Source: Gemmatimonadetes bacterium 13_1_40CM_69_22 (lineage in GTDB: Bacteria > Gemmatimonadota > Gemmatimonadetes > Gemmatimonadales > GWC2-71-9). Taken from it: a stretch of DNA of 64,000 nucleotides. The stretch is from contig MNEL01000020.1 of the NCBI GenBank assembly GCA_001917665.1, positions 119-64,118 on the forward strand, given 5' to 3'. Every line of letters starts with the position of its first letter. Positions within the stretch are counted from its first letter, which is position 1. The notes under the pieces were generated by a model that saw nothing but the letters and a program-made list of their open reading frames with translations, made no database searches and was not told where the DNA came from. The position numbers and the translations under genes were made by a program. Positions 22,223-26,224 of the stretch are shown here, in pieces.

Positions 22223-22525
22223 TCACTCGTCGTCATCGTAGCCGTACTGGTGATGGCGGTGATGATGCCGGTAGATTCTCGCCCGAGTCACGAATACCCG
22301 ATCGACGAACAGGGGGCGAACCGGATAGGGCCGGGGGACGACAACGACCACCGGCGGCCGATAGAAGTACGGGCGGTAGACATACGGCCGCTCCACCACG
22401 ACGATGCCAGACACGTAGGGCCGCGGCACACCGAACCCGACCGCGACGCTGACCCGCGTCTGCGCCGCGGCGGGAGCCGCAGCGAGTGCGAGTACCAGTC
22501 CGAATGCCAAAGCTGTGCGTTTCAT
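22223..22525 (-). CDS. Small secreted Pro/Tyr/Arg-rich protein
   Basis: GGAGGTGA RBS, signal peptide MKRTALAFGLVLALAAAPAAAQ. Confidence 0.75.
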   Translation of the reverse strand: MKRTALAFGLVLALAAAPAAAQTRVSVAVGFGVPRPYVSGIVVVERPYVYRPYFYRPPVVVVVPRPYPVRPLFVDRVFVTRARIYRHHHRHHQYGYDDDE

Positions 22526-22686
22526 AGGTCACCTCCGCGACACCGGCTCGTCGGAAGGGTCATGCCACAGGCGGAGGCCGTCGGATAACCTGCGCATCTG
22601 AGCCCACTTAGGGACGTTGGGCATGGGGCGTCGTGGCGCGCGGAGTTGTCACCCCCAGCGGTCACCGTGTAGCGGGGTCGGGTCCC

Positions 22687-23754
22687 TCAATCTCCCAGGC
22701 TGATCCCCAGGTCGCGCGCCGTCGCGATGGTATCGGAGTCGAGCGGGACGAGCTTCGGCATGGCGAGCGCCTCCGCAATGGGGATAGGGGCGATGGCGGG
22801 GGGTCGCAGCGCGACCATCGTCCCGAACTTCCCTTCTGCGATCACGCGTACGGCCGCCGCACCGAACCGCAGGCCCAGCAGGCGGTCGAACGTCGTGGGG
22901 CTGCCGCCACGCTGGAGGTGCCCCAGTACGATCGTGCGCGTCTCCTTGCCCGTCATTTCCTGGATCGAGTTGGCGACCTTGTCGCCGATTCCGCCGAGGC
23001 GCTCGTGCTCGGGATCGATCAGCGACACGGTGCCGCCCTTCGGTGCCGCTCCCTCCGCGACCACCACGATGCTGAAGTGCCGGCCCTCGGTTTCGCGCCG
23101 CTGGATTTTGTCGCACACCTTCCTGATATCGAAAGGGATCTCGGGGATCAGGATCACGTCGGCAGACCCGGAGATCCCGGAGTGCAGGGCGATCCACCCG
23201 GCGTGGCGCCCCATCACCTCCACCACCATGACGCGCTCGTGACTCTCGGCCGTGGAGTGGAGCTTGTCGATGGCGTCGGTGGCGGTCTGGACCGCGGTAT
23301 CGAAGCCGAACGTGGAGACGGTGCCACCGACGTCGTTGTCGATCGTCTTCGGCACGCCGACCACCGGGATCCCTTTCTCGAACAGCCGGTGCGCGATGCG
23401 CAGCGAGCCATCACCGCCGATTGCGATGAGGGCGTCGATCCCTTTGGTCCGGAAAGCGGCGATGAGCTCGTCGGTGCGGTCCCGCTCGACCCAACGGCCG
23501 TCGGGGAGCTGCTCGCGCCACCGGAACGGATCGCCGCGGTTGGTGGACCCGAGGATGGTGCCACCGAGGTGTGTGATGCCGCGGACCGCGTTGGCATCGA
23601 GCGTCACGACGCGGTCCTCGTCCAGCAGCCCGTCATAGCCGCGCCGGATACCGACGCACGCCCAGCCGCGGTGGACCGCAGCGAGCACGGCCCCGCGGAT
23701 CACGGCGTTCAGCCCCGGGGCGTCGCCGCCGCCGGTGGAGATCGCGATTCTCAA
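22687..23754 (-). CDS. pfkA: 6-phosphofructokinase
   Basis: TGGGDAPGLN, GGTILG, GGDGS, PKTIDND, EVMGRHAG, LGHLQRGG; TTG start. Confidence 0.93.
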   Translation of the reverse strand: MRIAISTGGGDAPGLNAVIRGAVLAAVHRGWACVGIRRGYDGLLDEDRVVTLDANAVRGITHLGGTILGSTNRGDPFRWREQLPDGRWVERDRTDELIAAFRTKGIDALIAIGGDGSLRIAHRLFEKGIPVVGVPKTIDNDVGGTVSTFGFDTAVQTATDAIDKLHSTAESHERVMVVEVMGRHAGWIALHSGISGSADVILIPEIPFDIRKVCDKIQRRETEGRHFSIVVVAEGAAPKGGTVSLIDPEHERLGGIGDKVANSIQEMTGKETRTIVLGHLQRGGSPTTFDRLLGLRFGAAAVRVIAEGKFGTMVALRPPAIAPIPIAEALAMPKLVPLDSDTIATARDLGISLGD

Positions 23755-23990
23755 CGCGCCGGCGGCGCCGTCTGCTGAATCAGGCGCAGCACTTCCCCGG
23801 GCTCAGCGTGCCGCCCGAGGGCCTTTTTGGAGAACAGGCGACGCCCGTCGATCTCGACTTCGAACACACCGCCGGAGGACTGGATCAGCTTGACGTCCGC
23901 GTGCGGGTAGGCCTTGCGGATCTCGGCCGCCAGACCGGCGGCCCGAGGCTCGTAGTTTCAGACGACACAGTACTCGATGGTGACGCGCAT
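23751..23990 (-). CDS. Rdx/SelW/SelT/SelH-family selenoprotein (79 aa, Sec at codon 11)
   Basis: Manual translation MRVTIEYCVV-UGA-NYEPRAAGLAAEI...SSGGVFEVEIDGRRLFSKKALGRHAEPGEV; CxxU plus GxFEV..FSK family motifs; UGA at 23958-23960. Confidence 0.9.
23922..23947 (-). promoter_or_regulatory. Bacterial SECIS element
   Basis: CUCG-G-GCCGCC-[GGUCU]-GGCGGC-CGAG hairpin; G-initiated loop 21 nt after the UGA. Confidence 0.82.
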
Positions 23991-24103
23991 ACGGGGTGTG
24001 GGAGAGCCGGCTCGGTTCCGTGTAAGGATAGTCGCGCTTGACACGCCACGCCACAGTCCCGAGTTTGCGCGGCATCCACCCCCGAGGATTCAGACCGACC
24101 GGC

Positions 24104-26224
24104 ATGAGCATCCTTCCCCGCCTCAAGGCCTCGCCCGGCGTGCTGGTGCGAACGCTCGTGTCGCTCGGGGCCGTCCTCGCCGTCGTCGCGGCGGTCGCCG
24201 CCTACGCCTCCGGACGGGCGGTCCTCGGTGCCGGTCTCGGGACCGAGTTCGTCATGCTAGTGGCGATCGGTGCGCTGTCGCGGCGCTACGGGGTGGCGCT
24301 CCCCGGCAATGGCTTTTCTTCTTACATCGTGGGCGTCACGGCGTTCGCTGTGCTCGACCGCGGGTGGGCGTGCGCGGCCCTTGTCGCCCCGACGGCCATG
24401 GTCGCGGGCGACCTGTTGTTGCGGCGGCTGCCGGCCCGCACGGCGCTGGGAAACGCCGCCCATCTCACGGCCGGCACGGCGGTCGTCGGCCTCATGTACG
24501 AGCGTCTCGGCGGCCTCCTGGGTGCCGACGCGCTCGACGCGACGAACCTCGCGCCCCTCGCCGCGCTGCTCGCGCTCCTACCCGTCGTCGTCAACGCCAC
24601 GTTCTACCTCGAGCTCGCGCTCGGTCGCTCGCTGGCATGGGTGGACGCGTGGCTCACCGCGCGGTGGGAGACGATCGTGTATGCCTGCTCCGCCGGGCTC
24701 GCGCTCGCCTGGCTGCGCCTCGCCCACGCCGGGCTTGGCCCGGTCGAGACGTTCGTAGCGGGCGCGGTCCTCGCCACGGCGACCGCGACCAGCGTGTACG
24801 TCGTCCGGCTCGGGGTGCGCGCCGACGAACTCGCATTGATCCAAGGGCTCTCGCAGGTCATCGCGCGAGACATCTCGCTCGCGAAGAGCTTCGCGCGCAT
24901 TCAGGAGCTCACGCGGCGCCTGGTGCCGTGGGAGCAGATGGGCTTCGCCCGCTACGACTCCCGCACCAACGAAATGGAGCTCGTCGCCGACACCGCGGCC
25001 GGCGGCCGGACGAGCTTTCGCTTCGACGCGAACGCCGGGCTGACCGGCGAGGCAGTCCGGCTACGCCGTCCCGTCGTGGCGCACGCGCTGCGGCCTGACC
25101 AGGTCGTCCTCCCTGGCGAGGAGCGCCCCGGCGCGGAGGTGCTCGTCCCGCTCTATCACGCCGGCCAACTGGTCGGTCTGTGGAGCGTGCGCCACTCCGA
25201 TCCCCTGATGTACCGCGAAACCGACGGCGAGGTGCTCGCGCTCCTCGCCCCCCAGCTCGCGCTCATGCTCGCGATCGAGACGTCGGTACAGCCGGTAGTC
25301 GGCGCCTCCGAGCGAACGACCACGTACATCGGGACCCTCACCGCGACGACGCAGGAGATCCATGCGTCGAGCCAGGAGGTAGCCGCGGCGGCCCAGCGCG
25401 CCAGCCACGGCGCGAAGCAGGCGGCGAGTCTCGTGAGCGCCGTGGCGCGCGAGTCGGATCAGCTCAAGCAGCACGCCGGCGAGGTCGCCGCGGCCGGCGA
25501 CCAGACGCGCGACTCGGGCTCCGCGATGGAGAAGACCACCGACAAGGTCCGCCTCGCGACCGAGACCGCCGTCCGCCGCCTCACGGACCTCGGGGTGACG
25601 ACCGAGCACAGCGCGTCCGAAGTGCGGCGGCTGCGCGACGTCGCCGAGCAGGTGGAGAAATTCTCGGAGACGATCGGGTTCATCGCGAACCAGACCAATC
25701 TGCTCGCTCTCAACGCTACGATCGAGGCGGCGCGTGCCGGCGTGCACGGCCGCGGTTTCGCCGTCGTGGCCGACGAGGTGCATAAGCTCGCGGAAGCAAG
25801 CGGGCGCGAGGCCCGGGCCGTCGGCCGGTCGGCGCAGGACACGCGCGGAGCTCTCGACCGCGCCGCCCAGCTGCTCGAGGGGCTCCGCGAGGACCTGACC
25901 GAGGTCGTCCGGGGCTCGTCCGAGTGGGTGTCGGACCTGAGCCACATCGCCGAGGCAGCCTCCAGCACCGCCCGGGCGGGGAAGCGCGTGGCGGAACTCG
26001 CGCGCGGCATCGCGGCGCTGTCGGGCCGGATCAGCGCGGCGCTCGAACAGGCGAAGGCCGGCGCCCAGTCGTCGAGCACGGAGGCGGAGGCCGTGGCGGC
26101 CGCAGCGGCGGAGCAGCTCAAGGCCATTGAAGCCCTCACCCACGGCGCCACCGAGCTGGCGCAGCTCGCCGACAACCTTGCGAAAGCGGTGCGCTTCGTC
26201 CGGGGGGAGAACGGCCATCCGTAG
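24104..26224 (+). CDS. Methyl-accepting chemotaxis-like protein (multi-TM, GAF, MCP signal domain)
   Basis: [38 protein letters not shown]; GAF-like GLTGEAV...VLVPL; hydrophobic N-terminus. Confidence 0.9.

Follow-up and report, generated by a model that had tools for sequence, protein, structure and literature searches.

Descriptions of bacterial SelW-like selenoproteins with a CxxU motif go back to 2005. In Sargasso Sea data they made up the most abundant selenoprotein family, with 48 selenocysteine (Sec) forms, a conserved CXXU motif and a SECIS element right after the UGA codon (according to the accessible text of PMC1088965). A survey of 2006 placed the family among the bacterial selenoprotein families for which Cys homologues are few or lacking in Sec-using organisms (accessible text of PMC1794560). 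The gene described here resembles these proteins in its predicted fold, in the place of its CxxU motif, in its similar size and in the presence of a SECIS-type hairpin directly after the UGA. It differs in host lineage – the Gemmatimonadota, the string 'Gemmatimon' being absent from the accessible text of PMC1794560 – and in a tight, order-wide pairing with a gene for phosphofructokinase. A literature search on Gemmatimonad selenoproteins and selenocysteine returned nothing that, judged from titles, was evidently on this gene. We regard it as highly probable that the stretch in question is a functional gene of a Gemmatimonadales soil bacterium for a 79-residue SelW-like selenoprotein, the UGA at codon 11 being decoded via a bacterial SECIS hairpin: the gene adds another representative to a long-known family with a long-known mechanism.

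A SelW-like gene with an in-frame TGA

The window – the whole stretch of DNA analysed, 64,000 nucleotides of contig MNEL01000020.1 from Gemmatimonadetes bacterium 13_1_40CM_69_22 – carries the gene on its minus strand (Table 1). Read directly, the frame opens with ATG (23990-23988) and closes with TGA (23753-23751); translated with TGA as U, its 79-residue product begins MRVTIEYCVVU and contains GGVFEVEIDG and FSKK, exactly as the initial annotation had read it. Under translation table 11 this frame yields a 38-aa piece only (23751-23867), and the ORF track therefore misses the selenoprotein gene, which had likewise been claimed. A read-through search recovered an orthologue in 57 of 61 genomes of the same order, each with an internal TGA.

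Table 1. Positions and properties of features at the SelW-like locus (numbering of the window)
Feature	Position	Strand	Basis or remark
SelW-like (Rdx family) selenoprotein gene, predicted	23751..23990	minus	79 codons plus terminal TGA; translation with TGA=U, profile matches
Selenocysteine codon UGA (codon 11), predicted	23958..23960	minus	last position of C-V-V-U; conserved in orthologues
C-V-V-U redox motif, predicted	23958-23969	minus	translation with TGA=U
Bacterial SECIS-type hairpin	23925..23943	minus	7-bp stem, 23943-23937 with 23931-23925; loop GGUCU, 23936-23932
6-phosphofructokinase gene (PFK_mixed type)	22687..23754	minus	TIGR02483, 450.6 bits, over cut-off; 355 residues
Gene for 728-residue chemoreceptor-like protein	24038-26224	plus	divergent, upstream of the selenoprotein gene

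Membership of the product in the Rdx/SelW family is established by profile searches, which were run with C in place of U: it scored 74.6 bits against PF10262 (Rdx; cut-off 22.6; profile positions 1-73 of 74), 61.5 bits against TIGR02174 (CXXU_selWTH; cut-off 34.2) and 101.8 bits against NF041051 (SelT/SelW/SelH family (seleno)protein; cut-off 88). The first two of these models had been proposed as a check at the outset, and both are matched above their cut-offs. A sequence search of the PDB returned seven Rdx-family chains, among them 2fa8, 2ljk (MIEN1) and 3dex, with E-values from 1.9e-9 to 4.9e-3; the CxxC motif of these three aligns with CVVU, the TGA codon taking the place of the second Cys of CxxC (2fa8, 2ljk).

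An AlphaFold2 model of the product (mean pLDDT 90, built on 55 orthologues) predicts a thioredoxin-like fold of the order strand-helix-strand-strand-strand-helix (strand 2-8, helix 14-27, strands 32-38, 43-47 and 50-54, helix 66-74), in which the CxxU motif (C8-V-V-U11) sits between strand 1 and helix 1. When the model was compared to known structures with Foldseek, all top matches were solved bacterial SelW-related proteins (2fa8, 2obk, 2oka and 3dex; TM 0.84-0.88); MIEN1 (2ljk) gave a TM of 0.73 and mouse SelW (2npb) of 0.67, with thioredoxins and glutaredoxins far lower. The solved Cys-type Rdx proteins (2fa8 (Atu0228), 2obk, 2oka, 3dex, 2ojl, 2p0g) are like the product in sequence and in predicted fold, and differ from it in carrying CxxC rather than CxxU and in being about 25 residues longer. 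Profiles, PDB alignment and model thus uphold the proposal of an Rdx/SelW protein with its CxxU motif placed across an in-frame TGA.

The hairpin downstream of the UGA

In the accessible text of PMC1088965, the bacterial SECIS is characterized as a stem-loop directly 3' of the UGA with a small apical loop that contains a G. What follows codon 11 here is a 7-bp stem with a 5-nt loop, GGUCU: the stem starts 14 nt after the UGA and, counted from the last base of the TGA, the loop starts 21 nt downstream, so that direct reading agrees with the hairpin, loop and distance given in the initial annotation. The spacing rule of bSECISearch is 16-37 nt. RNAalifold recovers the same helix; a possible eighth pair (G-U or A-U) would leave a GUC triloop (GUC/GUU).

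According to the initial annotation, the SECIS of Escherichia coli fdhF has GGUCU in its apex, and in E. coli K-12 the apex indeed reads GCA-GGUC-UGC. Both elements are stem-loops that lie in the coding region shortly after the UGA, and they share the GGUC(U) apex and the in-frame Gly-Leu codons, GGU CUG. They differ in that the loop lies 18 nt after the UGA in fdhF and 21 nt after it here, and in that the fdhF SECIS has a bulged U, whereas the helix here is a plain, G+C-rich one of 7 bp in which no bulged U is seen.

That this RNA structure is under selection is evident from an ungapped alignment (A1) of the 57 order-level orthologues, reduced to 56 distinct rows for pair counts. Pairing is kept in 97.7% of stem cells, and double-sided changes occur in four of the seven pairs (27 cells). 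Not one of 500 column shuffles reached the observed value on any of five measures – related genomes are not independent, and both orthologue counts and shuffle tests overstate significance – while in a control in which the 3' arm was slid by 1-3 columns at most 2 double-sided cells were left. The closing pair joins the third base of an Arg codon (CGN) to that of an Ala codon (GCN), both four-fold degenerate, and is found as GC (33), CG (10), AU (9), GU (1) and UG (1), with 2 unpaired: selection on the protein therefore cannot explain its covariation. The middle pair (31:41) is compensated in five rows (AU in 4, UA in 1) and broken in 6 of 56 distinct rows; the second loop base, a G, is invariant in all 57. 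All 10 of the more distant, class-level TGA forms compared likewise have a hairpin in this position, with further pair types. Judged by this comparative evidence, the TGA together with its hairpin is far beyond chance, and the compensatory changes back the SECIS-type reading of the element.

Folding energy was considered as evidence for the hairpin and dropped. By this measure the element folds no better than chance (z = 0.15; 104 of 200 shuffles are equally or more stable); the bona fide SECIS of fdhF is also unremarkable (z = -0.32; 60 of 200 shuffles), and folding energy therefore does not discriminate. No Rfam family, the Rfam SECIS models included, was matched at E <= 10 in 23600-24150. 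The bacterial SECIS models of Rfam are lineage-specific, so the absent match does not bear on function.

Could the hairpin be something other than a SECIS – a by-product of selection on the peptide P-R-A-A-G-L-A-A-E encoded across it, or an element that serves a different purpose in the RNA, for instance in mRNA stability or in coupling to pfk? Conservation of the peptide encoded here is high, and neither Rfam nor folding energy singles the element out. However, the covariation at four-fold-degenerate third positions cannot alter the protein, and synonymous sites are frozen inside the stem only: third-position entropy is 0.38, 0 and 0.14 at stem codons 17, 20 and 21, compared to 0.91-1.89 at 14 conserved degenerate codons in positions 29 to 70 (55 rows, L032 and L073 being left out). 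Position (loop at 21 nt vs. 18 in fdhF) and GGUC(U) apex match the E. coli element, and the one Cys form of the phylum sample, described below, has no recognisable peptide or hairpin region. Roles of this kind appear to us very improbable, and we retain the reading of the hairpin as a SECIS.

Selenocysteine machinery and distribution of the TGA form

The initial annotation implied selA, selB, selC and selD elsewhere in the genome. Most of this machinery is present in the source assembly (2.36 Mb in 60 contigs, rated 71.5% complete), which contains a tRNA-Sec (RF01852, 81 bits; ARAGORN SeC, anticodon TCA), selA (TIGR00474, 542 bits) and selD (TIGR00476, 402 bits). The selD gene (L015, G000:C50:57472-58398, minus strand) has an in-frame TGA of its own, which places U at the active-site position in SHGAGUACK, and is a second selenoprotein gene in this genome. 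The strongest predicted hairpin after the selD TGA has a CCU triloop without G, unlike the SelW-like element.

Of the predicted components, only selB was not found in this 71.5%-complete assembly: the best matches to TIGR00475 are IF2, TypA, LepA and a weaker GTPase, no SelB winged-helix domain (PF09107) was detected in the assembly, and selB does not adjoin selA on contig C54, where the next ORF encodes a GmhB-type phosphatase. EF-Tu is not above cut-off in the assembly either (the best match, at 97.4 bits, is TypA). Essential EF-Tu being missing too, essential genes are missing from this MAG, and the absence of selB therefore weighs little. Of 25 relatives, 23 have a selB above cut-off, and so do 4 of the 5 that belong to the same genus.

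Across 201 genomes of the phylum – related and not independent, so that the counts are descriptive only – selA was found in 162; the TGA form is present in 127 of these 162 vs. 3 of the 39 without selA (G208, G211 and G040, which are 94-95% complete). The sole match without TGA in these 201 genomes (L168, G214:C55:36143-36382) is a CTGC Cys form, longer and Atu0228-like, without recognisable peptide or hairpin region, and it sits in a genome without detected selA. In one genus (g50), the SelW-like gene and selA are both found in none of eight genomes, and parts of family f2 are also without both, which suggests that whole lineages of the family have lost the Sec trait.

Read-through of the UGA without the Sec pathway – by near-cognate Trp or Cys decoding or a reassigned code, the hairpin merely stimulating – would accord with the failure to find selB in the 71.5%-complete assembly and with those database translations that have W at position 11 (evidently code-4 calls). 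It is difficult to reconcile with the use of TGA as a regular stop in these organisms, where 21 of 30 orthologues end in TGA and neighbouring genes do likewise, or with the presence of tRNA-Sec, selA and a Sec-type selD. Moreover, selB is over cut-off in nearly all of the relatives while EF-Tu, too, is missing from the assembly; the TGA form tracks selA across the phylum; and the UGA occupies the position of the redox Cys of the family. We give such read-through very little credence.

Under the preferred reading, that of Sec decoding, we infer Sec insertion, SelB binding and a redox activity with its substrate in the following way. During translation the UGA at codon 11 would not be read as a stop: the hairpin inside the coding sequence would act as a bacterial SECIS and recruit SelB-GTP with Sec-tRNA(Sec). 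Selenocysteine inserted at this point would complete a Cys8-x-x-Sec11 redox centre where strand 1 ends and helix 1 starts, and the protein would most likely work as a small thiol/selenol oxidoreductase.

Conservation of the UGA is established at several taxonomic depths. Each of the 57 order-level orthologues was read, and all have C-x-x followed by TGA as codon 11, flanked on either side by conserved residues; the ten codons upstream of the TGA show protein-level conservation with synonymous variation. In the phylum sample, 131 of the 201 genomes gave a match and 130 of these 131 contain the TGA; it stands at codon 11 in 80 of 80 MAG loci from records titled Gemmatimonadales, Gemmatimonadetes or Gemmatimonadota. 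The initial annotation had named TGC or TGT in reads or orthologues, together with a lack of Sec machinery, as the mark of an error or pseudogene, and the counts of TGA (57/57, 130/131, 80/80) speak for a genuine codon. Metagenome loci found with query P0006 have TGA in 13 of 14 cases, the remaining one being a distant TGC form, and a search of 401 order-level genomes with the same query gave 24 matches, all with TGA and none above 77% identity. Unpublished genomes contribute one row at order level (G019, locus L032) and three genomes of the phylum sample (G208, G095, G183); no conclusion rests on them. Within the phylum the SelW-like gene is almost universally in the Sec form, in agreement with the few Cys homologues noted for the family in the accessible text of PMC1794560.

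One orthologue (L073, G035:C1:1104087-1104179) keeps the start, CxxU, TGA and hairpin region, while an internal deletion removes the central strands and would leave a product of 51 residues. This copy may be in decay; selA is still present in its genome.

The stretch was also found in soil-metagenome runs, and contigs of two DNA and two RNA-library runs (the RNA runs belonging to one study) were mapped to it. RNA-library contigs span the TGA site (X19, 23913-24006; X20, 23860-24027), contigs of this kind showing presence rather than transcription or transcript ends. Among the rows listed, no difference occurs at 23958-23960 in the four runs, and the RNA-library contigs with their unchanged TGA site lend weak support to the UGA. 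Summed depth is very high over 23857-23982, most likely because contigs from many relatives match this conserved stretch, and no conclusion is based on it.

In public protein records there are 262 relatives at E <= 1e-10; among the 120 listed, most are fragments of 44-65 residues, with names such as 'hypothetical protein [Gemmatimonadetes bacterium]' or 'selenoprotein W-related protein'. Fourteen relatives were inspected: 3 of them begin downstream of the hairpin, 3 have W as residue 11, which evidently stems from code-4 gene calling, and 8 have C there. These 8 are full-length, 74-80% identical and known from protein records alone; close Cys forms may exist.

That the TGA arose through an error of sequencing or assembly, or that the gene is a pseudogene whose real product is at most a downstream piece of 38 or 60 aa, would fit the lone 38-aa ORF of table 11 and the 44-65-aa fragments that prevail in public orthologue calls among the relatives listed, but it has virtually no chance of being right given a TGA at the same codon in the three sets of genomes counted above, ten upstream codons conserved as protein with synonymous variation, an Rdx profile and fold that need the N-terminal strand and CxxU, and, among the rows listed, no difference at 23958-23960 in four runs. 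The claim of a hidden selenoprotein as a whole is therefore confirmed as an observation and supported as an interpretation in every testable part, with selB the one component not found.

The phosphofructokinase neighbour

The TTG start of the phosphofructokinase gene (23754-23752) overlaps the stop TGA of the selenoprotein gene (23753-23751). The gene pair is conserved: in all 30 order-level loci (L017-L046), two of which are cut by contig ends, pfk is the next gene downstream and has the same orientation. It is downstream in 3 of 14 metagenome loci; of 10 class-level loci, 2 have it in this place, both belonging to a single family, and the other 8 have no pfk within about 2.5 kb. On the opposite side, the C-terminal part of the 728-residue protein is a methyl-accepting chemotaxis signalling region, weakly matched in NCBIfam (up to 68 bits), and the gene for this protein adjoins the selenoprotein gene in 21 of the 30 order-level loci. 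A consensus scan of 22400-24200 gave no consensus promoter or terminator. The SelW-like gene would be co-transcribed, and probably translationally coupled, with that for phosphofructokinase.

A full-text literature search found no paper on a pairing of SelW-like proteins with phosphofructokinase (PFK). It is conceivable, if unlikely, that in Gemmatimonadales the SelW-like protein is a dedicated partner of PFK rather than a redox protein standing by itself, and that the enzyme's redox state, and hence its activity, is set by a selenium-dependent thiol/selenol switch. If true, glycolytic flux would be linked through this switch to redox or selenium status, and the bacterial SelW-like family, long uncharacterised, would have PFK as its first defined client.

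The gene matters chiefly in practice: surveys of the selenoproteomes of soil Gemmatimonadota will miss SelW-like orthologues if they depend on public gene calls, because these are called mostly as fragments of 44-65 residues and a few are translated with W in place of Sec. The gene also supplies clean, naturally occurring data on the bacterial SECIS: at least 57 orthologues, with compensatory changes at synonymous sites. The understanding of Sec decoding is left unchanged; the one lead beyond the textbook is the order-wide pair of SelW-like and pfk genes, which offers a testable hint at what bacterial SelW-like proteins do.
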